Source of the DNA: Halalkalibacterium halodurans
GTDB lineage: Bacteria > Bacillota > Bacilli > Bacillales > Bacillaceae_D
Direction of reading: 5' to 3'
Length of the DNA stretch: 10,447 nt
Assembly (NCBI RefSeq): GCF_004376175.1
Contig: NZ_SNUY01000078.1
Coordinates: 1-10,447 of the forward strand
Shown here: in pieces, positions 1-10,447 of the stretch
Numbering within the stretch: the stretch's first letter is position 1
How the letters are laid out: every line of letters starts with the position of its first letter
Translations under genes and position numbers: made by a program
Notes under the pieces: generated by a model
Databases searched by the model: none
Told to the model about the DNA's origin: nothing
The model's input: only the letters and a program-made list of their open reading frames with translations

Positions 1-104
1 CGCCCTTGATTGACCTCTGAATAAACCATTGGTGTGTTTGTCAAGAGCGATAGCGTGGCATTTCCACCTAATAAATGGTAGGTAGTATGAACCGTGCTAG
101 TTTT

Positions 105-428
105 TCATAGAACTTTTGACACTACCTCATCATTCATGATATTTTCGACCATATGAACATCTATCGCAGAATATTTAATACGGTTTTTTTGAATGGCATA
201 AAACAAAGTGTGATACATCTTACGTTTTGGATTACTTCGAGATGGCATTAATAAGAAAATGCTAACTCCCATACCAAAAACATAATAGGGAATGGTTAAC
301 GAAGAGTGAACCATTCCCTTAGATAGATAAAGAAAAAAAGCAGTTAGTAATAGAATGACAATCTCTTTAAGATGAAATGACTTGGTTATCTTTATCTCAC
401 TTTTAAAGTGTTTCGGAATTTCATACAA
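105..428 (-). CDS. Small two-TM T4SS membrane protein, PrgI/ConD/TcpE-type (VirB3-like), 107 aa
   Basis: Track ORF. The start is TTG (426-428), with a GGGAGGAAGG SD about 8 nt upstream. It lies 1 nt after the TAG stop (430-432) of the upstream gene, so the two are translationally coupled. An N-terminal IPKHFKSEIKITKSFHLKEIV segment is followed by two adjacent hydrophobic helices and a basic tail (RSNPKRKMYHTLFYAIQKNRIKY), which is the PrgI-family/VirB3-like layout. It sits directly after a VirB6-like gene. The family call is from recalled pattern only. Confidence 0.75.
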   Translation of the reverse strand: MYEIPKHFKSEIKITKSFHLKEIVILLLTAFFLYLSKGMVHSSLTIPYYVFGMGVSIFLLMPSRSNPKRKMYHTLFYAIQKNRIKYSAIDVHMVENIMNDEVVSKVL

Positions 429-429
429 G

Positions 430-2640
430 CTACCTTCCTCCCTTTCTCCAATCTCTTATTGTTCTTCCGATTCGATACCCTGTATTGTAACCTTTTACAT
501 GCTCTTCCTTGGCTTTCATAACTACTCTATTTTGCCCCCAAATAGTATTTGGGTGTTGGGCTGTTTTAAACCCTGTTTCCTTTGTAGTATCGTATGTGGT
601 TTCTTGATATTTTTCATTAGGTGCAGTACTTTCTCCACTCGGAACTGGCGCTGTACCTTGTACGCTTTCACTTGAAATTGGTGCAGTACTTTCTCCACTC
701 GGAACTGGCGCTGTATCTTGTACGCTTTCACTTGAAATTGGTGCAGTACTTTCTCCACTCGGAACTGGCGCTGTACCTTGTACGCTTTCACTTGAAATTG
801 GTGCAGTACTTTCTCCACTCGGAACTGGCGCTGTATCTTGTACGCTTTCACTTGAAATTGGTGCAGTACTTTCTCCACTCGGAACTGGCGCTGTACCTTG
901 TACGCTTTCACTTGAAATTGGTGCAGTACTTTCTCCACTCGGAACTGGCGCTGTACCTTGTACGCTTTCACTTGAAATTGGTGCAGTACTTTCTCCACTC
1001 GGAACTGGCGCTGTATCTTGTACGCTTTCACTTGAAATTGGTGCAGTACTTTCTCCACTCGGAACTGGCGCTGTATCTTGTACACTTTCGCTTGAAATTG
1101 GTGCAGTACTTTCTCCACTCGGAACTGGCGCTGTACCCTGACCAGCCTGTGCATTCAGATTCTGACCTTTCATGCCTTGATCAGCTTGTGCATTTGGATT
1201 CTGACCTTTCATGCCTTGATCAGCCTGTGCATTTGGATTCTGACCTTTCATGCCTTGACCAGCCTGTGCATTTGGATTCTGACCTTTCATGCCTTGACCA
1301 GCCTGTGCATTTGGATTCTGACCTTTCATGCCTTGACCAGCCTGTGCATTTGGATTCTGACCACTTGGGATTTTGTTATTCGCTTGATTACGTCTCGATT
1401 GAGATAAAGCGCCATTGTCTTTTTTTGCCCCATTAGTAGCTTGTATACCTGCCTTTAATCCCCCTGCTAAACCTACACCTTGATTGAATTTAGAGAAGCT
1501 TTCACTTACGAGTTTGCCCCCTACCTTTGATGTCACGTTTGATACAGCTTTACTAGCCATCACTAATCCTACACCTGTCCGCCAACTATCTTTTAATCCT
1601 GCGTCTACTCCTAGTATTCTTTCGACTAAGTGTGGACCATCAATAAGAGCAAGGCTAGCCGCTAATAATAGTAACGAGCTTCCAAACGACCCCAAAGACG
1701 ATTGACCACTTAGCCAGTTTGAAAAAAGCACATAGAATTTAAGAGACACTGCAAGAAAAAAGATAACCGCAAAATTGGAAATTATATCATTAATAATTTG
1801 TTTGATTCGCTGTCCTCCTGATAAATCTGTGACAGCTATAAATAAGCCAAACAGCTTTTTAAATGCTAACTCAAATATAATTCGTCCAACTTTTAAAACA
1901 GCTATAATTAACGTAATTCCAATCACAGATAAGCTAAAAATCGTATTCCACCAAGCTACATGCCAACGGTAGTAAAGTTCTTTACCAATACCAAACCATC
2001 CGTTGCCAAGTGGCTCTTCTCTAAAATTACCATTTGTGTCCATAACCAATTTGCTTTTTAAGTAATCATTATTTATATCATCACTGTCGGGATCTATCAA
2101 TTCATTAATATCTATATACGTTATTCGACTAACCGGAAGATCATTTACAAGTCCTTTTTCCGGTATTCTCACATTAAAATCCTTTTTTGCATAAAGGTAT
2201 ACATCAGCAATATTACCTTTAATAAGTTGTTCAGCATTTGTGCCAGCGCTAGTATCACCTATGGCTTTGACCCCTGCTGTTGTTATATTGTCTAAATTAG
2301 ACAATAGCAGGGGCAATGCAATAATAAACAAGAAAGCCAATAAAACATTAGTCACAACTCTTTCCCGATCTTGCATTTTCCCTGCCATAAACTTATATCC
2401 TATCCACACCAGTGATATTGCAACAAGTACCCATAATACCGGCGACCATTGTTTTATAAAGTTATTTACAGGTGCTGAGTTGAAAAATCCATTCATAGTC
2501 AATACTGTATCCGTCATACCTTCTACTTGGTTGACTAGCCACATAAGCCCTAAAATGAGCCACCAGCCTAACTCTCGAAGGGATGAACTAAGTATATTAG
2601 CAATGTTCAAAATCGAATCATATTGTTCTAAAACGTCCAA
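430..2640 (-). CDS. VirB6-like polytopic T4SS channel protein (ConG/TcpH/PrgH class) with a long repetitive C-terminal tail, 736 aa
   Basis: Track ORF. TTG start at 2638-2640, with a GGGGGAGA SD about 5 nt upstream, 11 nt after the stop of the upstream gene. Residues 1-340 contain about 7 hydrophobic helices, with a ~115-aa hydrophilic loop after the third helix (VirB6-type topology). The segment LIDGPHLVERILGVDAGLKDSWR after the last helix resembles Gram-positive VirB6 analogues. The C-terminal ~330 aa carry GQNPNAQAGQGMK x5.7 and TAPVPSGESTAPISSESVQ[G/D] x8.7 repeats, followed by a basic 60-aa end. Confidence 0.85.
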   Translation of the reverse strand: MDVLEQYDSILNIANILSSSLRELGWWLILGLMWLVNQVEGMTDTVLTMNGFFNSAPVNNFIKQWSPVLWVLVAISLVWIGYKFMAGKMQDRERVVTNVLLAFLFIIALPLLLSNLDNITTAGVKAIGDTSAGTNAEQLIKGNIADVYLYAKKDFNVRIPEKGLVNDLPVSRITYIDINELIDPDSDDINNDYLKSKLVMDTNGNFREEPLGNGWFGIGKELYYRWHVAWWNTIFSLSVIGITLIIAVLKVGRIIFELAFKKLFGLFIAVTDLSGGQRIKQIINDIISNFAVIFFLAVSLKFYVLFSNWLSGQSSLGSFGSSLLLLAASLALIDGPHLVERILGVDAGLKDSWRTGVGLVMASKAVSNVTSKVGGKLVSESFSKFNQGVGLAGGLKAGIQATNGAKKDNGALSQSRRNQANNKIPSGQNPNAQAGQGMKGQNPNAQAGQGMKGQNPNAQAGQGMKGQNPNAQADQGMKGQNPNAQADQGMKGQNLNAQAGQGTAPVPSGESTAPISSESVQDTAPVPSGESTAPISSESVQDTAPVPSGESTAPISSESVQGTAPVPSGESTAPISSESVQGTAPVPSGESTAPISSESVQDTAPVPSGESTAPISSESVQGTAPVPSGESTAPISSESVQDTAPVPSGESTAPISSESVQGTAPVPSGESTAPNEKYQETTYDTTKETGFKTAQHPNTIWGQNRVVMKAKEEHVKGYNTGYRIGRTIRDWRKGGR
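621..1140. repeat. 60-bp perfect-phase tandem repeat, about 8.7 copies, inside the VirB6-like CDS
   Basis: The unit gtgcagtactttctccactcggaactggcgctgta[c/t]cttgtacgctttcacttgaaattg starts at 621, 681, 741, 801, 861, 921, 981, 1041 and 1101 (the last is partial). One site toggles c/t (656+60n: c,t,c,t,c,c,t,t,c), giving Gly/Asp on the minus strand. The only other changes are two synonymous Ser-codon swaps at 1084 and 1090 and one synonymous Gln change at 1138. Confidence 0.97.
1141..1362. repeat. 39-bp tandem repeat, about 5.7 copies, inside the VirB6-like CDS
   Basis: The unit a[c/t]cagc[c/t]tgtgcatt[t/c][g/a]gattctgacctttcatgccttg starts at 1141, 1180, 1219, 1258, 1297 and 1336 (the last is partial, ending at 1362). 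It encodes GQNPNAQA[G/D]QGMK on the minus strand. The length is a multiple of 3, so copy-number change keeps the reading frame. Confidence 0.97.
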
Positions 2641-2651
2641 AAAATCTCCCC

Positions 2652-3389
2652 CTATAAGGTCACTGAAATATCATGCTTTGCTTTTTGCAAATACAAGAAA
2701 TTAAATAACAAAAATAAGTAAAAGACTGTAAAAATAACTAAAGTAATAGGGGAATTAAGAAAGTCAGCATATAGCTTACTAGCAAAGAGCGATAAAAGAA
2801 TAGGAACCGCAAATACAATACCTGTCATAAAATAAACTCTGTTCGCACTATATTTTTTCTCTCTCTGCAATTCATCCCTTTTAGTTGTCTCGAAGTTAAT
2901 TAATTTGCTAGTAGGACTGAAAAGATCTGTTACAGATCCCCCCATTTGATACTTAATCTCTAATATTTGATGGAAGGCATTTAGCGATACAAAATTATAT
3001 TTTTCAAAATGAGCTACATCGAGTACACCTTCTTGTTTGAGCGTTTTTATAGTCTTGTCTATATCCTTTTTCAATAAATCACTAGCCGATTCTTTAGCTC
3101 CTTCTAAGGCAAAAAGAACGTTTTTGCCTGTCTTTAAATAAAAAACAACATTTGAAACATACTTACTTAACTCACTAAAAATCCTCTGTTCTTTCTTTAA
3201 CTGCCTCCCCAACAATGAAATGCTATAGAAGCAAAGCAAAGACCCAACAAGCCCTAACAAAACGCTTAATACAACATGTTTGCTGATCATGTAGATGTAA
3301 AGAAAGTTGATACTAAAATAAAGGAGTAAATGGAGCAATACCACCCAACCAGAAAACAATTCTTTTGTTAAACCCCATACATCTTTCAT
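2652..3389 (-). CDS. Polytopic membrane protein with T2SSF (GspF/TadB/TadC)-like organisation, 245 aa
   Basis: Track ORF. ATG at 3387-3389, with an AGGAGG SD 8 nt upstream. Two N-terminal TM helices, a ~115-aa helical cytoplasmic segment, then two C-terminal TM helices. The central region follows the platform-protein pattern: SELSKYVSNVVFYLKTGKNVLFALEGA ... NAFHQILEIKYQMGGSVTDLFSPTSKLINFETTKRDELQREKKYSANRVYFMTGIVFAVPIL. The CDS is confident; the family assignment is moderate to low. Confidence 0.8.
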   Translation of the reverse strand: MKDVWGLTKELFSGWVVLLHLLLYFSINFLYIYMISKHVVLSVLLGLVGSLLCFYSISLLGRQLKKEQRIFSELSKYVSNVVFYLKTGKNVLFALEGAKESASDLLKKDIDKTIKTLKQEGVLDVAHFEKYNFVSLNAFHQILEIKYQMGGSVTDLFSPTSKLINFETTKRDELQREKKYSANRVYFMTGIVFAVPILLSLFASKLYADFLNSPITLVIFTVFYLFLLFNFLYLQKAKHDISVTL

Positions 3390-3415
3390 TTTTTTAACCT
3401 CCTGTTTTGATTAAT

Positions 3416-3450
3416 AAAAAAAGGCTTACAAGTCCAATCACTTGTAAGCC
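3416..3450 (-). terminator. Rho-independent terminator downstream of the primase gene
   Basis: On the minus strand: GGCTTACAAGT-gattgg-ACTTGTAAGCC (perfect 11-bp stem at 3423-3433/3440-3450, 6-nt loop) followed directly by TTTTTTT (3416-3422). The plus-strand reading has no T-tract, so it is unidirectional. Confidence 0.85.
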
Positions 3451-3470
3451 CCGAAAAAATCCCTAATAAC

Positions 3471-3499
3471 AATATAGCACGCTTTGAGTACCTTGTTAG
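3471..3499 (-). promoter_or_regulatory. Candidate sigma-A type promoter (extended -10) in the primase/245-aa intergenic region
   Basis: On the minus strand: CTAACA (3494-3499, 4/6 to TTGACA), a 17-nt spacer ending in TGC, then TATATT (3471-3476, 5/6 to TATAAT). That gives a TGnTATATT extended -10. It is only a sequence match, and the spacer also contains a 5-bp inverted repeat AGTAC...GTACT. Confidence 0.3.
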
Positions 3500-3526
3500 T
3501 ACTTAAATAGTTCATAAAAAGTTCGT

Positions 3527-5134
3527 TTAACCAACTTCCTTTTGAGATTCTTTTTCTTTGTTTTTAGTTTTTAATGGCTTTGTTAAATCTAAAATCTTGT
3601 TAGAAAAATCCTTAGAAGTCTTAACAAAGCTATTTATTTTATCACCCTTAAAATAGTACGGTGTTGATACATAATCTTTTCCTTTACTCTTACCTGTTAC
3701 AATTCCATTTACAATTAAATTACGATAACCAATATTAACAGATATATTACCGTTAGAGAAAGTATGTGAATGAATGATTTTAGGATCAAACTTCCCCCCC
3801 CCTGAACTAATATTAATCCCTACATTCTTAACTGTATTTTTTTCCTTAACCTGATGTTTAAGCTCATAGTAACTTTTAATCAACGCCCCTTCTATCATTC
3901 GTTTATCAAGGCTTTCTTCAAATCTATACACATCCCTCCATACACTATCAGTCCCCTTTTTTTGTGGATAATTAATCATAGGTGAACCTTTATATTCCTC
4001 TATTACAATATTATTGAGAGTTATCTCACCGTACTTCACACATGCAAGGGAAATTCCTTTATCTTGCAAAAAGGTCATATTAACAATCTTAACTTTATAA
4101 TCATTTGATTGCTCTGTTTTGTCATTCATTTTCTCACCCTCCTCTTTTTTCAAATCTATGTCTAAGGTTCTTAAAGTTAGCTCTATTTGTCGCTCAAAAA
4201 GTAAGCGGTTGCTTTGGAGTAAGTCATTAGGATCTTTTAGATCCATATCTGGATAAATAAATCCTTTATGAAACAACTTCTCTTCATCCAAAACGTGTGC
4301 TATTTTTTTATCTGCTTCTTTTCCTGCTCTATCATTGTCAAAAGCTCTAATAATCTTTTTCCCCTTAAACTTATCAGGGTTTTCTTTTATAAATGTTTCA
4401 AGCTGTTTTATTTTATTTGAACCTGTAGTCATTAATAAACCCATTTTCGGATCTATTTCTCGGAATGATAGTCCGTCTATAATACTTTCACTAATAACAA
4501 CAGTTTCAGCATTATCCGGTATATCTTCGACAAAATATCTTGCTTTCTCTGTTGGATTTAAAAATAACTGGATTTCTTTCTTCTTTAGACTAGGATCAGA
4601 CGACCTTAATAACAACGAGTCAATTGATCCTTCATGATTGTAAATAGGAAAAACAATATTCCTCTTTGTCATAAAGTCCATTTTCGCATAGTCTTTTTTG
4701 ATTAGGTCAGGGATTTTCGAGAACATAAGTGATACAATCTTAGGATCTTTTAGATCCAAAATGAAAGGTTTCGTAACTTCTCGATTTATCCCCCGATAAT
4801 TTTCTAATTCTTGATTTACAACATGTTTACTCATGAATTTAAAAAAATTAGTACACCAGTCGATTTGCTCTTTTTGTTTTAAAGAGATACTTTTAGGTTT
4901 TTCGTTTTTCTTTAAGTTCAGATTACCTTTTAGTTTTTCATTTAGTTTAATATGCCAACGTTCACCGCAATTATTTTGCCTATTGCACTGTAACACATTA
5001 AGATTATCTTTATACATAAATGCTTCTGGCTGATTACAAGATGGACAAGTACATAAAAAATAACGCCCCTGTGGTTGAGCGTTTAAAGATTCCAACATAT
5101 CATCAATATTCCTAAACTCTAATTGATTCACCAT
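3527..5134 (-). CDS. Plasmid/ICE-type DNA primase: N-terminal Cys-rich zinc ribbon + Toprim domain + C-terminal tandem SpoVG-like domains, 535 aa
   Basis: Track ORF. ATG at 5132-5134, with a GAGGT SD 7 nt upstream. Cys cluster C28-x-C30-x2-C33 ... C50-x5-C56. Toprim signature: acidic Glu in VVISESIIDGLSF (E216) and DxD in IIRAFDNDRAGKEAD (D266/D268). Residues ~346-425 and ~436-517 each resemble SpoVG (see findings). Confidence 0.85.
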   Translation of the reverse strand: MVNQLEFRNIDDMLESLNAQPQGRYFLCTCPSCNQPEAFMYKDNLNVLQCNRQNNCGERWHIKLNEKLKGNLNLKKNEKPKSISLKQKEQIDWCTNFFKFMSKHVVNQELENYRGINREVTKPFILDLKDPKIVSLMFSKIPDLIKKDYAKMDFMTKRNIVFPIYNHEGSIDSLLLRSSDPSLKKKEIQLFLNPTEKARYFVEDIPDNAETVVISESIIDGLSFREIDPKMGLLMTTGSNKIKQLETFIKENPDKFKGKKIIRAFDNDRAGKEADKKIAHVLDEEKLFHKGFIYPDMDLKDPNDLLQSNRLLFERQIELTLRTLDIDLKKEEGEKMNDKTEQSNDYKVKIVNMTFLQDKGISLACVKYGEITLNNIVIEEYKGSPMINYPQKKGTDSVWRDVYRFEESLDKRMIEGALIKSYYELKHQVKEKNTVKNVGINISSGGGKFDPKIIHSHTFSNGNISVNIGYRNLIVNGIVTGKSKGKDYVSTPYYFKGDKINSFVKTSKDFSNKILDLTKPLKTKNKEKESQKEVG

Positions 5135-5148
5135 ATTGTTTACCTCAA

Positions 5149-5682
5149 CTATACAGACTCACTTAAATAACTGTGATCATTTGTAACCTCTCTGTGAGTA
5201 GATAAAACAATTGCTGGATAACTTAATTTTTCAATCTCTTTATCATCAAAAGTAAGTCCTTGAGAGCTTACCAATATCTTCTGTTTTTCTTTGATCCTAT
5301 AATAATGATCCGTCTTATTAATTTGTTGCTCAATTGCCTTTTCTAAATTTCTAGCTATGAGATAAATGATAGCTCCGTCTCCAAAGATACTCTTATTATC
5401 AAAATATTTTTGTAACTCCAGAGATCCCACTACAATGAAGTCATTATTTAAACATTCAGATAGAGCAACAACTTCCTCCATTTCTTCTTCTAAACCTTTT
5501 AATAAAGCAAAATCATTAAATTTATTAGAGTAATATATACAAGGAGTACATTGAGGACTACTTGTAAACAGAAGAATGATCTCCTGCCAAAACTGTTCCG
5601 CCATAGCATAGCATTTTTCTGCAATCCTATTTACAATTTTTTCATTTAAATATTGATTCTCATGTAATAACAAATTACTCAT
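5149..5682 (-). CDS. Hypothetical acidic cytoplasmic protein, 177 aa
   Basis: Track ORF. ATG at 5680-5682, with an AGGAGAG SD 6 nt upstream. It is 11 nt after the upstream stop and 14 nt before the primase start. No TM segment, no signal peptide and no motif I recognise. Confidence 0.8.
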   Translation of the reverse strand: MSNLLLHENQYLNEKIVNRIAEKCYAMAEQFWQEIILLFTSSPQCTPCIYYSNKFNDFALLKGLEEEMEEVVALSECLNNDFIVVGSLELQKYFDNKSIFGDGAIIYLIARNLEKAIEQQINKTDHYYRIKEKQKILVSSQGLTFDDKEIEKLSYPAIVLSTHREVTNDHSYLSESV

Positions 5683-5693
5683 AATTAACTCTC

Positions 5694-6950
5694 CTAACTT
5701 TTATTTTTTTCAAAAACCACTTTAGTAACATGACTGATATACTCAGTAACCGCCCAATACTTAAAATCCATGCCTTTATTAATGCTCGACTCATATAACA
5801 CTTTTTTTACCTCTTCTTGATCCAACGTTGCAACATACTCCATAATCTCACGTTCAAAACGCCCAAAGAATCCACATTCTATTAATTCCTCAATTTTTAA
5901 AGTTTCTTTTTTGTTCTGCAACCTTCTAATTAGTTTGCCATCTTGACAGATGTTTTTTACTAAGATTTCTGCTACATTATCGAATCCATGTTTTGAAAAT
6001 AAATTTAAAAGATCGTCTTCTGTTTGTCCGTTTGATTGACTTTCATTTTCCTCATTAATGTTAAAGACAATAATCGCTTCTTCTGACTTCTGATCCTTTT
6101 GTTCATTCTGTAAGTATCCAGATAATACTGGCAGTATAATATTATTTTTTATATCGTCCTCAGAGGAAATAACTATCCCCTTTTTAATAATTGAATACCA
6201 CCTGTTCTTCAATAAAGTTTCTATTTCTTTATTCTTTTTTAGCGCCAATACGTAGTCCTCTAAAGCTAGTTGCTCGAATAAATATCTTTGAACCTCTTCA
6301 TAAACTTCCGAATCTCTTAGGCATTTATCAAGTCTAGATAAAGGTAAACTGTAGCGACTTGCTACAGCATAATTCTGAAACATTGAAAAGTTTTCAACGT
6401 CATTTAGACTTTCCTGTGTTAATTCCTGTGTTAAGACTAGATCATCAAAAGAATACTTAATTGCTTTTGCAATATCATTAACTTCACTATAAAAACTACC
6501 TACTATTCGATCTCTAAAAAGATCATAGAGTTGCTTCAATTTTTCTAAACTAAAAGAAAAATCTTGATTAGAAAATTGTTCTTCGACTTCAATAGCAAAC
6601 AATTTAAAATTTTGATCCAAAAACAATTTCTTTTCTTTTGATAGAAAATCAGTAAAATCATTGATCACTTTATTTTTCGTAGCTTCATTCCAATTTGACG
6701 CATTTTTTATTATCAGATAAATCGATTCTTCCAAACTTCTATTATCATTAAAATCAATAAAAGCCTTTAACACTCTTTTATTTTTAATAAACAAAGTAAA
6801 GGACAGTTCAACATTATCCCTTCCATTTTTTCTAAATTCACCTTTAAGTTTTTTTAAGATTCCTTCTAATTCGCTAATAAAATATCGTCGCTTTGGATCT
6901 AAATCTCTAATGCTGTTATTAGCTTCAACAACTACATGTACTTCCCTCAT
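5694..6950 (-). CDS. Hypothetical acidic helical cytoplasmic protein, 418 aa from the preferred start
   Basis: The track ORF extends to a TTG at 6980, but that codon lies inside the upstream terminator T-tract. The ATG at 6948-6950 has an AAAGGGG SD 7 nt upstream and is preferred. There is no Walker A, metal-binding or nuclease motif that I can recognise, and no TM segments. Confidence 0.8.
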   Translation of the reverse strand: MREVHVVVEANNSIRDLDPKRRYFISELEGILKKLKGEFRKNGRDNVELSFTLFIKNKRVLKAFIDFNDNRSLEESIYLIIKNASNWNEATKNKVINDFTDFLSKEKKLFLDQNFKLFAIEVEEQFSNQDFSFSLEKLKQLYDLFRDRIVGSFYSEVNDIAKAIKYSFDDLVLTQELTQESLNDVENFSMFQNYAVASRYSLPLSRLDKCLRDSEVYEEVQRYLFEQLALEDYVLALKKNKEIETLLKNRWYSIIKKGIVISSEDDIKNNIILPVLSGYLQNEQKDQKSEEAIIVFNINEENESQSNGQTEDDLLNLFSKHGFDNVAEILVKNICQDGKLIRRLQNKKETLKIEELIECGFFGRFEREIMEYVATLDQEEVKKVLYESSINKGMDFKYWAVTEYISHVTKVVFEKNKS

Positions 6951-6978
6951 GTCAAAACCCCTTTTTAACAGTAAATAC

Positions 6979-7010
6979 AAAAAAAGATGGTGAGTTAATA
7001 ACTCACCATC
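6979..7010 (-). terminator. Rho-independent terminator downstream of the 75-aa gene
   Basis: On the minus strand: GATGGTGAGTT-att-AACTCACCATC (11-bp perfect inverted repeat at 6986-6996/7000-7010) followed by TTTTTTT (6979-6985). It starts 8 nt after the TAG stop at 7019-7021. Confidence 0.85.
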
Positions 7011-7018
7011 CTACATTT

Positions 7019-7246
7019 CTAGAAGGCAACTACCCCTCTTAAACTGTCTCGTAACGCTCCTGCTCCCAGCACAATCACCAGTCCAACAAGAAGCCATGTA
7101 ATATTTCGCTTGCCCTTTTCCCTACCTTCTTGTCCTCCTGCAAAGAAGTTATACCCCGCCATACATAACATTACTGCACAAAAAGCCCACGCAGGCATTT
7201 GAATAAGCCCTAAGAAGTTTATTAAAGTAGAAATTACACCCTGCAT
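7019..7246 (-). CDS. VirB2/TrbC-like small two-TM protein (pilin-type T4SS subunit), 75 aa
   Basis: Track ORF. ATG at 7244-7246, with a GGAGGA SD 8 nt upstream. Two hydrophobic helices are separated by a short charged loop (GGQEGREKGKRN). The pattern LINFLGL...AFCAVMLCMAGYNFFAGG...LLVGLVIVLGAGALRDSLRG parallels mature Agrobacterium VirB2 (FILGPFGQSLAVLGIVAIGISWMFGR...GGIVIMFGASFLGKTLTG). This is recalled similarity, not a search result. Confidence 0.7.
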   Translation of the reverse strand: MQGVISTLINFLGLIQMPAWAFCAVMLCMAGYNFFAGGQEGREKGKRNITWLLVGLVIVLGAGALRDSLRGVVAF

Positions 7247-7273
7247 TTTTATAATCCTCCAATCTCATTTAAA

Positions 7274-7462
7274 TTAATCTGATACTGCTTCTAAAACAAA
7301 AGATAGATTTTCTGTGATTACTTTTTCATGTTGTGAATGTAGCCATTCATTGTAATCCACTCCTTTCAGAGCAAGAATTTTTTCAGCTTGCTCCTTCTTT
7401 GTTTTAAAATTACTTGGCTTCTTTCTTGGTCTATTTTGCTGTTCATTTTTCAGTTGTTCCAT
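7274..7462 (-). CDS. Small basic soluble protein of unknown function, 62 aa from the preferred start
   Basis: The track ORF (83 aa) starts at 7525, inside the upstream gene. The ATG at 7460-7462 has an AAAGGAG SD 8 nt upstream, and this SD overlaps the TAA stop (7476-7478) of the upstream gene. Sequence: MEQLKNEQQNRPRKKPSNFKTKKEQAEKILALKGVDYNEWLHSQHEKVITENLSFVLEAVSD. Confidence 0.65.
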   Translation of the reverse strand: MEQLKNEQQNRPRKKPSNFKTKKEQAEKILALKGVDYNEWLHSQHEKVITENLSFVLEAVSD

Positions 7463-7475
7463 ATTCTCATCTCCT

Positions 7476-10010
7476 TTATTCCAACGAAATAATATTAGAC
7501 AACCTTTCGTATAGGTCACCATCACTTGTTCTAAAAGAATGTAATAGCTGAGGTTGATCCTGCACCAATTCGAGTATTAGATTCTTTTGTGAATCCTTAA
7601 TCTCGACAGCATGTGTATAACTAACATTTAACGTAGATTCAGGTTGTTCATTGACGTATACGTCATCATAAACAGATCCTAATAGATACTTCTGAAAAGC
7701 AAATTCTTTACCAAAGTCAAGCGTTAGATCATTAAGTGTGAGCTTACCCAAAACATAATGATTCTTATACTGTCTCTCTCTATTCAGAAATGACTTTGGA
7801 TCAACAGGTAAATAGTACCTTTGACCATCAAAAGTTGTTATGTTTTCATTACTAAATTTTGACTTAGTAATTGATTCATACTCTAACTTTGCCTGTTTCT
7901 TTATATCTTCCTTACTTGACTTTCTAGGGACTGAGAACTGAAACCCTGTTTTATCTAAAATAAAAAAATCATCTTTAGCACCAAAATACGCCTTATACTG
8001 GTTTGCTTCACCCTCTTGTATTTCTATTAACTCAAGGGGAATTGCATACTCTGTATAGGCGTAAGCAGTTTTATTTTGATATTTTTTCTGTATAGATTCA
8101 TCCAAATCTACAGGGTAAAGGAACATAAAATCCTCGTCAATGTTATAAGGGAATGGCTCTCCAAAGTCTGATTTGTACTCTATTGGCTTATCAAATATCG
8201 GAAGCCAACTTTGCGTGAGTAAAGTAATCATTCTTTGATCATTAAGCTTTAGTGACTCATAATAACTTTCTTTTTCCCCTTTCGAACCTACCTCTACCGT
8301 TTGCCCTATTAAGAATCTGTGATCAGTACCAAATTCTAAATTATAGGTTTCATTATATGGATAATCTAAGTTAAACGTTTCTTCCCACTGGAAGCTTTTT
8401 TTATACTCTTTATCCCACACAGGTGTACTATCTTTGTAGATCCACTCAAAACAATGCTGTCCTTGTTGATCAGTACAAGTATAATTACGCCTAAAATGGT
8501 TCGTATACTCATAAGAAAAAGAAAACAGAACATCCCTTTTTTTTACATCCAATGGTTGTAACTTCGTTGAAAATGGTTCATCCTCTACGTTGTTAAATAC
8601 ATTTGCTGAATAGATACGATTTTCTACATTTTGTACATCAAAGTGCAACCCTGCAACCGTAGCAGAATTAACCAATAAGGTTTCACTAGGGTTATTTTCT
8701 TTAATTTTTTGTAAGCGCCATGATACTTCACCTTGAGCTTTCCCTTCTGTTGCACCATCTAATTCTTCTATACTGGAAGGGTTCGGCAAAGATACTTTGT
8801 AGGTAAATGTAAAATTCATATTGTTATTTGGTGTAGTCCCTTCATATTTTTGTCCTTCTGGCGAAGCGACAAAAGGGTTTCCGTTGGAATCCTTAAAAAA
8901 TCCAGCCTTCTCAGGTGCATACGAGTAAGAGTTTCCAACAGTAGATTTTACCTTCGTTTGCATTAATATCTTGCCTGTCGCGTAATCCTTATGAGTAATT
9001 GTTACATCAACTGTACATCTTTGATTGATGTTTACTATTGACCCATCTGGACAAACCTTTTTGGTTACTTGGTACGATAGAGTAGCAATAGTACCACCAA
9101 AAGCCCAATAGCTACTAGCTGCCCATCGAGTTCGTCCTGAATCATGAGGGCTACTGACACCATACCAAACAACAGTACTCTTTTGATCTTGGTTCACACG
9201 TTGATAAAAGCGATTGTAGTCAAAATAGTTGCCACTGTTTGTAGTCCCTCTTGGTTCGATTCGCCTGATAACACCATTTCCAATCATACGTAACTGTTGA
9301 GCGTTAATCCCACTAGAAAGGCTAATTTCACCATTACCCCAAGATAGATTTTCAAACTCAAAAGGTAAACGCAATTCGTCATAAAGAACAGTTGAACCTA
9401 CTCTTTTGACAATACGTAACTGCCAATCAGAGTTATTTTCCCCATCCTTAAAAAGCTCATCTAATGGAACATGCGCTCTAAACCCTACATGTTCATAATA
9501 CATGTTGCAAGTTGCATTATTTTGGTTTCTAGCACTATTCGCACAAGGGTTCCAAATATCCCCCGTTTGAGACTGACGGTTGAACTCCATATCTTTTGAA
9601 GCGTTAAAATTAAGTTGTTCCGCTTTATAAAACTTGTCTTCCCCAGTCCTAATATTTTTAAGCCAAATGTATGTGTCTTGGTTATTTTCTGTGTGGTGTC
9701 TATGTCCAATAACTGCTGACCATCCTGTGAAAGTTAAATATTGCCTACTACCTTTTCCAAAGTCCCTACGTTTAATGCTCCAGCCTTCTTTTCCGTCTCT
9801 TTGCATATAAACATCATATACCATCTTTTTTCCACTTTCGAAAGTAGCAGATCGATCTCCTTTTGTCCTCTTGTTTACATCGCTCATTTTAACGTCGTAA
9901 GGACTGTAACTATTCGCTAATCCATTTTCAGGGAAAGCCAACCAAAGAGCAAACCAAAGAGCAAATAATGAAAACACAACAGTTATATAGGAAATTGCTT
10001 TCTTCATCAT
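7476..10010 (-). CDS. Large secreted surface/adhesin-like protein with a MucBP-like beta domain, 844 aa from the preferred start
   Basis: The track ORF begins at a TTG at 10049, inside the upstream terminator. The ATG-ATG at 10005-10010 follows an AAAGGGGGTGAGGGA SD. It has a classical Sec signal peptide (MMKK + AISYITVVFSLFALWFALWLAF + PENGLA/NS). Residues ~346-419 in track numbering (VDVTITHKDYATGKILMQTKVKSTVGNSYSYAPEKAGFFKDSNGNPFVASPEGQKYEGTTPNNNMNFTFTYKV) fit the MucBP pattern. There are three short-range Cys pairs (169/181, 333/345, 525/533). There is no C-terminal LPXTG or TM anchor. Confidence 0.85.
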   Translation of the reverse strand: MMKKAISYITVVFSLFALWFALWLAFPENGLANSYSPYDVKMSDVNKRTKGDRSATFESGKKMVYDVYMQRDGKEGWSIKRRDFGKGSRQYLTFTGWSAVIGHRHHTENNQDTYIWLKNIRTGEDKFYKAEQLNFNASKDMEFNRQSQTGDIWNPCANSARNQNNATCNMYYEHVGFRAHVPLDELFKDGENNSDWQLRIVKRVGSTVLYDELRLPFEFENLSWGNGEISLSSGINAQQLRMIGNGVIRRIEPRGTTNSGNYFDYNRFYQRVNQDQKSTVVWYGVSSPHDSGRTRWAASSYWAFGGTIATLSYQVTKKVCPDGSIVNINQRCTVDVTITHKDYATGKILMQTKVKSTVGNSYSYAPEKAGFFKDSNGNPFVASPEGQKYEGTTPNNNMNFTFTYKVSLPNPSSIEELDGATEGKAQGEVSWRLQKIKENNPSETLLVNSATVAGLHFDVQNVENRIYSANVFNNVEDEPFSTKLQPLDVKKRDVLFSFSYEYTNHFRRNYTCTDQQGQHCFEWIYKDSTPVWDKEYKKSFQWEETFNLDYPYNETYNLEFGTDHRFLIGQTVEVGSKGEKESYYESLKLNDQRMITLLTQSWLPIFDKPIEYKSDFGEPFPYNIDEDFMFLYPVDLDESIQKKYQNKTAYAYTEYAIPLELIEIQEGEANQYKAYFGAKDDFFILDKTGFQFSVPRKSSKEDIKKQAKLEYESITKSKFSNENITTFDGQRYYLPVDPKSFLNRERQYKNHYVLGKLTLNDLTLDFGKEFAFQKYLLGSVYDDVYVNEQPESTLNVSYTHAVEIKDSQKNLILELVQDQPQLLHSFRTSDGDLYERLSNIISLE

Positions 10011-10037
10011 TAGAAGTCCCTCACCCCCTTTTCGAAT

Positions 10038-10070
10038 AAAAAAACACAAAACCTAGTAGCTTCGTGTTTT
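10038..10070 (-). terminator. Intrinsic terminator of small-peptide cassette 1
   Basis: Minus-strand RNA: AAAACACGAAGC-uacuag-GGUUUUGUGUUUU followed by further U (7 U in a row, 10038-10044). The core stem is 8 bp with two G.U pairs, flanked by A/U pairs. It overlaps the TAA stop at 10069-10071. Confidence 0.7.
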
Positions 10071-10224
10071 AGAATACATTGCGAATCGTATCTGTAATAC
10101 CTTTAAAAACAGTATCTACTGTTTGACTAAACCATCCATTATCACCACCAAGTGCTACCCCTAGCACTCCAAAGAGCATTACAGCAAGAACAATTAAAAA
10201 CAAAGATCCATTTTTTTCACCCAT
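10069..10224 (-). CDS. 51-aa single-TM membrane peptide, cassette copy 1 (not in the ORF track)
   Basis: Hand translation of the minus strand gives ATG (10222-10224) ... TAA (10069-10071): MGEKNGSLFLIVLAVMLFGVLGVALGGDNGWFSQTVDTVFKGITDTIRNVF. The SD AAAGGGGGTGA (10/11 match to AAAGGAGGTGA) ends 5 nt before the ATG. An identical peptide is encoded 209 bp upstream, with only a synonymous difference. Confidence 0.8.
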   Translation of the reverse strand: MGEKNGSLFLIVLAVMLFGVLGVALGGDNGWFSQTVDTVFKGITDTIRNVF

Positions 10225-10246
10225 CAGTTTCACCCCCTTTTCGAAT

Positions 10247-10279
10247 AAAAAAACACGAAACCTAATAGCTTCGTGTTTT
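10247..10279 (-). terminator. Intrinsic terminator of small-peptide cassette 2
   Basis: Same hairpin as at 10038-10070, but the stem G.U pair is a G-C pair here (10257 g versus 10048 a on the plus strand) and the loop differs by one base. It is followed by U7. Confidence 0.7.
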
Positions 10280-10433
10280 AGAATACATTGCGAATCGTAT
10301 CTGTGATACCTTTAAAAACAGTATCTACTGTTTGACTAAACCATCCATTATCACCACCAAGTGCTACCCCTAGCACTCCAAAGAGCATTACAGCAAGAAC
10401 AATTAAAAACAAAGATCCATTTTTTTCACCCAT
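10278..10433 (-). CDS. 51-aa single-TM membrane peptide, cassette copy 2 (not in the ORF track)
   Basis: ATG at 10431-10433 and TAA at 10278-10280. The protein is identical to copy 1, with a single synonymous ATT/ATC difference at Ile43. It has the same consensus-like SD. Confidence 0.8.
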   Translation of the reverse strand: MGEKNGSLFLIVLAVMLFGVLGVALGGDNGWFSQTVDTVFKGITDTIRNVF

Positions 10434-10447
10434 CAGCTTCACCCCCT

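Follow-up and report, generated by a model that had tools for sequence, protein, structure and literature searches.

A leaderless VirB2-type pilin-like protein as a probable subunit of a pLS20-type conjugation machine in Halalkalibacterium halodurans

Up to late 2025, textbooks described the conjugation machines of Gram-positive bacteria as operating without a VirB2 pilin. Here we describe part of a gene cluster for a type IV secretion system (T4SS) from Halalkalibacterium halodurans (RefSeq assembly GCF_004376175.1), which fills a window of 10,447 nucleotides (nt; contig NZ_SNUY01000078.1, positions 1 to 10,447), and in particular a gene on the minus strand of this window that encodes a protein of 75 amino acids (aa). 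The gene had been proposed from the DNA letters alone to encode a VirB2/TrbC-type pilin-like protein. The premise of this original prediction, namely that Gram-positive T4SSs are generally described as free of pili, is outdated because a pilus was proposed and tested in December 2025 (bioRxiv 10.64898/2025.12.18.695078). With an estimated probability of about 70 %, the gene encodes a VirB2-type pilin-like subunit of a pLS20-type conjugative T4SS, which resembles the mating-pair formation type FATA (MPF_FATA), and the protein would act by forming a short tube as outlined below.

The sole Gram-positive example that has been tested experimentally is PrgF (PrgF_B2; locus L005, 19545-19772), which is encoded by the Enterococcus faecalis plasmid pCF10. 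PrgF is essential for conjugation, its cysteine-labelling pattern fits a pilus lumen and the protein has been modelled as a pilus that rises from a VirB6 pentamer (bioRxiv 10.64898/2025.12.18.695078). Moreover, cysteines in the PrgF loop are accessible to polyethylene glycol (PEG)-maleimide, and transfer is blocked by the reagent. The same study lists VirB2-like candidates in 95 % of 174 Gram-positive plasmid classes, pXO1 and pXO2 included. Like the H. halodurans protein, PrgF consists of 75 aa, is leaderless, has two helices with a short, charged linking loop and carries a C-terminal Phe, and its gene is located just upstream of the gene for the VirB6-like protein PrgH. However, PrgF matches neither of the pilin families PF18895 and PF04956 and shows only a weak match to Maff2, and its loop is acidic (DD.R), whereas that of the window protein is basic. 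PrgH belongs to the short TrbL/VirB6 proteins and not to the pLS20_p028 family.

The Bacillus subtilis plasmid pLS20 is closer to the locus described here. The product of pLS20 gene 45 (WP_013603207; locus L086, 14035-14265) has 76 aa and two transmembrane (TM) segments, ends in Gly-Phe, scores above the PF18895 cutoff and aligns over its full length with the family of the window protein (hhalign, 96.8 %). A gene 44 homolog precedes the pilin-like gene in both systems, and an extended VirB6-like protein (gene 49) and a DUF5592 protein (gene 50) are encoded downstream. The two clusters differ in that VirD4 lies between the pilin-like and the VirB6-like gene in pLS20, whereas the window carries a Toprim primase gene. 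In the paper describing the pLS20 family, gene 45 is listed as unknown and the family is said to be without a VirB2 homolog (PMC8557374).

The classical TrbC/VirB2 pilins of PF04956, such as Agrobacterium tumefaciens VirB2, RP4 TrbC and R388 TrwL (8S6H), share with the window protein the helical hairpin, the length of the mature pilin (69 aa in TrwL) and a profile-level similarity across the family, and the N-terminus of A. tumefaciens VirB6 also resembles a pilin. In contrast to the leaderless window protein, the classical pilins lose a leader of approximately 30-50 aa (TrwL is processed from a precursor of 101 aa to 69 aa) and some of them are cyclised. Moreover, the window system lacks an outer membrane and a VirB7/9/10 core, and a VirB5 homolog was likewise not found. 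The archaeal Ced/Ted pilins CedA1 and TedC, which we compare from their description in the literature, are VirB2-like pilins of single-membrane organisms, and CedA1 is exported unprocessed. Almost the entire pilin has a homologous counterpart in the N-terminus of the VirB6-like CedA (PMC9905601), a relation that also holds for the VirB6-like protein of the window. However, Ced and Ted are DNA-import systems of archaea for which lipid-containing pilus structures have been solved. Finally, VirB2-like pilins occur in Patescibacteria as PF18895/PF04956 arrays, where PF18895 was used to detect them, and in Mycoplasma as the pilin-like Mbov_0395 family from integrative and conjugative elements (ICEs; NF045849), likewise in a monoderm context of the MPF_FATA type. 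The patescibacterial and mycoplasmal genes form arrays of 2-11 divergent members that mostly lack a relaxase, whereas a single copy is present in the conjugation cluster of the window.

The pilin-like gene and its flanking signals are the following.

7019-7246, minus strand: pilin-like gene with an ATG start, 75 aa, product MQGVISTLINFLGLIQMPAWAFCAVMLCMAGYNFFAGGQEGREKGKRNITWLLVGLVIVLGAGALRDSLRGVVAF; ortholog of pLS20 gene 45
7256-7260, minus strand: Shine-Dalgarno sequence GGAGG, 9 nt before the ATG, read from the sequence
6984-7012, minus strand: intrinsic terminator of 13 pairs with a 3-nt loop, followed by a run of seven T residues (T7) and located 7 nt past the stop codon of the pilin-like gene

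The open reading frame (ORF) and the terminator that had been described are both real, and every feature ascribed to them was recovered. The ORF extends from stop to stop over positions 7022-7264, and the gene can encode no N-terminal leader because an in-frame stop is present six codons upstream of the ATG. The leaderless nature of the product is also apparent from the alignment with PF04956, which begins only at profile position 39. Thus, the leader and its removal, which are hallmarks of VirB2 pilins, are missing from the 75-aa protein. Hydropathy analysis revealed two hydrophobic stretches around the charged loop QEGREKGKRN, which contains four basic and two acidic residues, and the quoted motifs GYNFFAGG and VLGAGALRDSLRG are present in the protein. 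A length of approximately 75 aa was also observed for 28 of 38 unique relatives. The ORF is not a chance ORF since 52 of the 80 related loci contain one member of the family, which matches the profile with an E-value between 1e-12 and 1e-30.

In protein databases, the 75-aa sequence is deposited as a hypothetical protein of H. halodurans. A word-indexed protein search retrieved only the protein itself, and neither a tblastn search of PLSDB with the protein nor a megablast comparison of the whole window with plasmids gave a match; an Rfam scan of the window was also negative. Because the protein is too short and too divergent for word-indexed searches and tblastn, an exhaustive phmmer search over 1.84 billion representatives was required, which uncovered 118 relatives. 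The roughly 30 relatives that consist of a single domain were combined in an alignment (A1).

The window protein scores above the gathering cutoff of PF18895 (T4SS_pilin; 34.3 versus 26.6 bits, E = 2.6e-8), and its residues 3-60 cover positions 3-62 of the 71 profile positions. The match to PF04956 (TrbC/VirB2; 21.7 bits, E = 2.3e-4) is sub-threshold and covers positions 39-94 of 98, which correspond to the mature pilin. Moreover, there is a weak match to the NCBIfam family NF045849 of pilin-like proteins from Mycoplasma ICEs (E = 7.6e-6). Among 30 family members, 28 match PF18895 and 22 match PF04956 at E < 0.01, the best of them with 2.6e-10. The syntenic ortholog from Paenibacillus larvae even exceeds the cutoffs of both families (30.2 bits for PF04956) and is named "TrbC/VirB2 family protein" in RefSeq; the ortholog from the Bacillus cereus plasmid pRML02 is annotated as "pilin". 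The single match of the P. larvae ortholog among PDB sequences is the mature TrwL pilin (8S6H), which is collinear and weak (E = 0.36). The alignments within the family are full-length and collinear. In A1, the loop has the conserved form GGxEGRxKAKK, K46 and G55 are invariant, and a C-terminal Phe is conserved, which is the final residue in most members. Judged by these profiles, the 75-aa protein belongs to PF18895, whose members grade into classical TrbC/VirB2. The predicted VirB2/TrbC-type identity is thereby supported, and the profile similarity to TrbC/VirB2 that had been named beforehand as a check is present across the family, although sub-threshold for the window protein itself.

Among the other proteins from the phmmer search (P0002-P0118), the majority of the remote homologs are single polypeptides of 200-1395 aa with 2-8 tandem pilin-like hairpin units. 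For the metagenomic homologs, a cluster look-up yielded no taxonomy. For instance, P0002 has 552 aa, a Sec leader and six units, and P0009 has four units. Two of these proteins are called 'Type IV secretion system pilin' in IMG. They are fused poly-pilins, whereas the published work on Patescibacteria describes arrays of separate pilin genes. Regarding the C-terminus, 28 of 38 unique pilins terminate with Phe, and in longer ones this Phe is followed by 2-11 further residues. A terminal Phe is also common to unrelated small membrane proteins of Gram-positive T4SSs, since it is found in the pilin family, in PrgF, in the product of pLS20 gene 41 and in a 54-aa protein of the window. The shared residue might be a sign that the C-terminus is recognised or processed at this site.

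Further evidence comes from the VirB6-like protein that is encoded on the same strand.

430-2640, minus strand: gene for an extended VirB6-like protein of the pLS20_p028 family (NF045890, 380.6 bits versus a cutoff of 150), homolog of pLS20 gene 49
2287-2493, minus strand: pilin-like hairpin of the VirB6-like protein (residues ~50-118; AlphaFold2 helices 56-86 and 92-126)

The VirB6-like protein is presumed to be the assembly platform. The top four Foldseek matches of its AlphaFold2 model, which has a predicted local distance difference test (pLDDT) value of 64, are all R388 TrwI/VirB6 (probability 0.96-0.99, E ~0.1). By using the pilin profile in hmmsearch, the N-terminal hairpins of two VirB6-like proteins were recovered (E = 1.3e-6 and 3.3e-4). 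Moreover, hhalign aligned the pilin family with the VirB6 family with 89 % and a score of 41.4, placing pilin residues 2-71 on residues 50-118 of the VirB6-like protein. Composition can be ruled out as the cause of this match because the scores of 150 column shuffles and of 150 block-preserving shuffles did not exceed 23.2 and 21.8, respectively; the reversed profile scored 13.6. A relation between the pilin and the N-terminus of VirB6 has been described for CedA1 and CedA and, more weakly, for VirB2 and VirB6 of A. tumefaciens (Beltran et al. 2023, PMC9905601). For the Gram-positive pLS20-type systems, we found no report of this relation. The alignment of the VirB6-like N-terminus with the pilin is additional evidence that this VirB6 has its cognate pilin-type partner in the 75-aa protein.

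At its other end, the VirB6-like protein carries a C-terminal extension with two near-perfect tandem repeat arrays (window positions 620-1362). The first array has a period of 60 and 8.6 copies of the 20-aa unit TAPVPSGESTAPISSESVQD/G, and the second has a period of 39 and 5.7 copies of the 13-aa unit GQNPNAQAGQGMK. The copies are 96-98 % identical, which argues for a recent expansion. The repeat region is probably an extracellular disordered spacer.

The genomic context was studied in 80 loci that were gathered by using the VirB6-like protein as an anchor. In 52 of them, the pilin family is represented by exactly one small ORF, which is always located upstream of the VirB6-like gene and in the same orientation. 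The distance between both genes ranges from 65 to 7240 nt in the relatives (median 4.3 kilobases, kb). A T4SS cluster that also encodes VirB6 and VirB4 is the place where a VirB2 gene would be expected; in the window, the VirB6-like gene follows 4.4 kb downstream on the same strand, and VirB4 is seen only in the relatives. The same module was found on a P. larvae plasmid and on pRML02. Moreover, ter Beek et al. (2025) define the Gram-positive VirB2-like class by proteins of 50-150 aa with an Out-TM-In-TM-Out topology, with or without a signal peptide, that are encoded near virB6, and the 75-aa protein has this length, this location and, as predicted, this topology. Their definition further includes a pilus-like AlphaFold3 assembly of 10 pilins and 5 VirB6 copies with an ipTM above 0.65 and a gene that transfer depends on.

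The original prediction had also emphasised a strong terminator with an 11-base-pair (bp) stem downstream of the gene. Indeed, a perfect 11-bp stem (GATGGTGAGTT/AACTCACCATC) forms the core of the hairpin, which extends to 13 pairs (7012-6984) and is followed by the T7 run. RNAfold assigned -18.4 kcal/mol to the hairpin (z = -4.6), and none of 200 shuffled sequences was as stable. The terminator had been taken as the mark of an abundant subunit, and this claim stands only in part. On the one hand, the site is enriched for terminators. For this comparison, an energy-based detector was applied that searches for a hairpin and a T-run within 140 nt after the pilin-like gene and, as a background, after other genes on the same strand, because a strict detector of perfect stems undercounted the terminators (12/52). 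With the energy-based detector, a hairpin and a T-run were found after the pilin-like gene in 33 of 52 loci as compared to a background of 20 %. After dereplication at 80 % identity, the ratio was 20 of 27 pilin sites versus 83 of 361 background sites (23 %; Fisher p = 1e-7). On the other hand, the terminator is not unique, since the window contains four comparably strong terminators on the minus strand (10279-10250, 10070-10041, 7012-6984 and 3452-3421). In pLS20-type operons, about 23 internal terminators are predicted, and antitermination by ConAn allows the polymerase to pass them; besides Ter30, six more terminators were tested (five from the operon and one foreign control), all of which terminated transcription and were antiterminated by ConAn (PMC8191782).

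Thus, a terminator after the pilin-like gene is favoured but not universal, and its role in setting the stoichiometry of the subunit is inferred. The 3' hairpin would probably raise the level of the pilin mRNA relative to that of the downstream genes because transcripts ending at the hairpin would carry a stabilising 3' structure, and the site would be passed by polymerases that started at the main conjugation promoter and are antiterminated. The competing explanation, to which we give slightly less than even odds, is that the element is a generic internal terminator that blocks spurious transcription and is read through by a ConAn-type complex loaded at the start of the operon. The abundance of such ConAn-responsive terminators in pLS20, the other three in the window, the 20-23 % of gene ends in related loci that already carry one and the lack of a terminator 3' of pLS20 gene 45 are all consistent with this explanation. 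What speaks against it is an approximately threefold excess over the background at the post-pilin site across many genera. The hairpins are of unrelated sequence between genera, and the enrichment suggests that a terminator has been selected for at this particular position. Both explanations of the terminator are compatible with each other.

The AlphaFold2 model of the 75-aa monomer is a helical hairpin (helices 2-36 and 38-74; pLDDT 80). Family-wide, the loop has a net charge of +1.8 and the N-terminal segment one of -0.7, and a few homologs (P0093, P0110) carry Sec leaders ahead of the same domain. From the positive-inside rule and from these homologs, a topology with both termini outside and the basic loop in the cytoplasm is predicted. 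As in VirB2, two hydrophobic helices would therefore flank a short charged loop in an N-out/C-out arrangement. The pilin would insert into the membrane in this orientation with no leader being cleaved, probably through YidC/SpoIIIJ, and would accumulate there as a pool. Upon activation of the operon, the subunits may leave the membrane and form a helical stack on the pentameric VirB6-like platform, by analogy with PrgF of pCF10. The resulting short tube would cross the thick cell wall, and its lumen would be lined by the loop, as has been proposed and partly tested for PrgF. In general, VirB2-type pilins assemble into helical tubes of this kind, in which lipid is usually present.

Several results weigh against this interpretation. 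The window protein stays under the curated cutoff of PF04956 (21.7 versus 27.9 bits). A search of PDB sequences with the family profile found no VirB2; its matches were all to designed coiled coils or transporters and lacked significance. Moreover, hhalign between the family and the single TrwL sequence was negative. Likewise, no sequence similarity to PrgF was detected (hhalign 1.2 %, family versus single sequence). When the hairpin model was compared to the PDB by Foldseek, no match had an E-value below 0.001 and the 50 listed matches are all generic helical hairpins; Foldseek is unable to discriminate here because the monomeric hairpin is too simple. In pLS20, gene 45 is followed by gene 46 after a gap of 20 nt that contains no terminator. 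In addition, microscopy has so far revealed no conjugative pilus on Gram-positive cells (bioRxiv 10.64898/2025.12.18.695078). Finally, a comparison with the P. larvae plasmid and pRML02 revealed that the genes for VirD4, a FlaJ-like protein and a VirB11/TadA-like ATPase, which the relatives carry between the Toprim gene and the gene for a 245-aa membrane protein, are absent from this place in the window (3390-3526 and flanks), where the Toprim gene is followed by a terminator and then by the 245-aa gene. Because this block is missing there, the element may be rearranged, reduced or not self-transmissible.

The lack of an observed pilus is also the first argument for the main rival explanation, which we consider unlikely. 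According to this explanation, the protein is homologous to VirB2 and yet never polymerises outside the membrane; it would remain a stoichiometric part of the channel in the cytoplasmic membrane, packed around or onto the VirB6-like protein, and would help to gate or line the translocon, and no fibre would be formed. Beltran et al. derive the pilin from a membrane segment of VirB6 or assign a shared origin to both (PMC9905601), and the homology between the pilin and the VirB6 N-terminus fits a lateral packing in the membrane equally well. Moreover, the most conserved part of the protein is the loop that faces the cytoplasm in the predicted topology, where it could contact the VirB4 ATPase. However, the labelling of the PrgF loop by PEG-maleimide and the resulting block of transfer argue for extrusion, the enrichment of terminators suggests expression above that of the neighbouring genes, and the patescibacterial relatives form diversifying pilin arrays, which are typical of exposed subunits.

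The VirB6 relation also permits a bolder reading, which is speculative and rather improbable. The built-in hairpin of the VirB6-like protein (residues ~50-118) would form a zeroth layer of the fibre, five copies of which template the first pilin ring, and the product of the gene upstream of the pilin-like gene, a conserved soluble protein of about 62 aa, would act in the cytoplasm as a dedicated factor holding or delivering the leaderless pilin by way of the pilin's invariant basic loop. As part of the same reading, the pilin would be ancestral to T4SSs because a bona fide pilin related to PF18895/TrbC and to VirB6 occurs in a monoderm system. If true, this would contradict the proposal that pilins were added late for the contact of spatially separated cells (PMC9905601).

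That the protein is instead an unrelated two-TM protein (holin-like, toxin/immunity or entry-exclusion) resembling pilins by composition only is very improbable. In its favour, matches by composition are common to hydrophobic hairpins of this short length, the model is not separated from generic hairpins by Foldseek and the only PDB sequence match of the window protein is a bacteriocin immunity protein (E = 0.87). However, the score above the curated PF18895 cutoff, the full-length collinear alignments with the invariant loop Lys and the conserved C-terminal Phe, the strict synteny with VirB6-like genes in 52 loci and the shuffle controls for the VirB6 match all speak against it.

The location in a Gram-positive T4SS cluster, as originally proposed, is supported by the VirB6-like protein of the pLS20_p028 family, the DUF5592 protein and the Toprim primase. 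The remaining genes of the window are the following.

10041-10447 (10069-10233 and 10278-10442), minus strand: two tandem genes for 54-aa single-TM proteins that open the module; a separate terminator of 13 pairs follows each of them
7476-10010, minus strand: gene for a large exported protein of ~844-857 aa with an N-terminal hydrophobic signal-like segment, co-transcribed upstream of the pair formed by the ~62-aa gene and the pilin-like gene
7274-7462, minus strand: gene for a soluble charged protein of ~62 aa, upstream partner of the pilin-like gene; homolog of pLS20 gene 44 (E = 4e-11)
3527-5134, minus strand: gene for a primase-like protein with a Toprim domain (PF13155, E = 2e-11), followed by the terminator 3452-3421
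2652-3389, minus strand: gene for a polytopic membrane protein of 245 aa, directly upstream of the VirB6-like gene; 39 % identical to a 253-aa protein at the same position in pRML02
105-428, minus strand: gene for a small membrane protein of the DUF5592 family (PF17332, 73.5 bits), directly after the VirB6-like gene; homolog of pLS20 gene 50

In the order of transcription, the two 54-aa genes, each with a terminator, are followed by the genes for the exported protein of ~844 aa and the ~62-aa protein, the pilin-like gene with its terminator, genes for two unknown proteins, the Toprim gene with a terminator and the genes for the 245-aa protein, the VirB6-like protein and the DUF5592 protein. 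DUF5592 was found in 54 of 80 related loci. In the relatives, VirB4 follows DUF5592 and a relaxase is seen; both lie outside the window.

The gene for the ~62-aa protein is located directly 5' of the pilin-like gene in 30 of 52 loci (BLAST; median identity 49 %) and its product belongs to no Pfam family. Because the two genes are conserved as a pair, the ~62-aa protein may be a partner specific to the pilin, for example a chaperone, an assembly factor or a regulatory factor. Over its full length, the large exported protein shares 40 % identity with a protein of 912 aa that is encoded at the same position in pRML02. Pfam, NCBIfam and PDB sequences gave no match, and neither an LPXTG motif nor a C-terminal anchor was detected; the label 'adhesin' therefore stays a guess. 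The original prediction had emphasised that the pilin-like gene lies next to the gene for this protein, an adjacency that does not hold for the family as a whole because the neighbour is found only in the closest relatives (pRML02 and P. larvae). Within this sub-lineage, the protein represents a conserved component, either surface-located or secreted.

The 245-aa membrane protein has no match in Pfam or NCBIfam. It was also evaluated as a TadB/C- or FlaJ-like platform, and this assignment was rejected since it has no support from Pfam and since the protein matches the unnamed protein preceding VirB6 in pRML02 rather than the FlaJ-like position upstream of the ATPase. Similarly, the idea that the duplicated 54-aa protein is a Flp-like pilin was dropped, as Pfam provides no support. 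The two 54-aa genes originate from a tandem duplication of 209 bp with 98 % identity (window positions 10021-10447), and the product ends in Phe. A homolog is likewise duplicated in pRML02 (locus L089, 7673-7843 and 7880-8050), and the protein resembles the product of pLS20 gene 41 (47 aa; locus L086, 13191-13334). Probably, the 54-aa protein is a further small component of the envelope that the system expresses at a high level.

The concept of a pilin in Gram-positive conjugation has already been published, the Pfam family is years old, orthologs are already named in RefSeq and the window adds one member. The small advances made here are the explicit recognition that genes 44 and 45 of pLS20 form the conserved pair, the sequence bridge from Gram-positive pilin-like proteins to TrbC/VirB2, the extension of the relation between pilin and VirB6 N-terminus to a Gram-positive family and the enrichment of terminators after the pilin-like gene. 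Because PrgF matches neither this family nor the pilin families of Pfam, it is the family described here that provides the sequence link between pilin-like proteins of Gram-positive bacteria and classical VirB2. Thus, the pLS20-type family carries a VirB2-type pilin-like protein that is detectable by an ordinary profile search and is not "almost without sequence homology". A single family unites the product of pLS20 gene 45, the "pilins" of plasmids from the B. cereus group and P. larvae and classical TrbC/VirB2, and it offers a leaderless counterpart with a basic loop to PrgF with its acidic loop. For the Gram-positive pilus model, the well-developed genetics of pLS20 thereby gains named candidates, namely genes 44 and 45.

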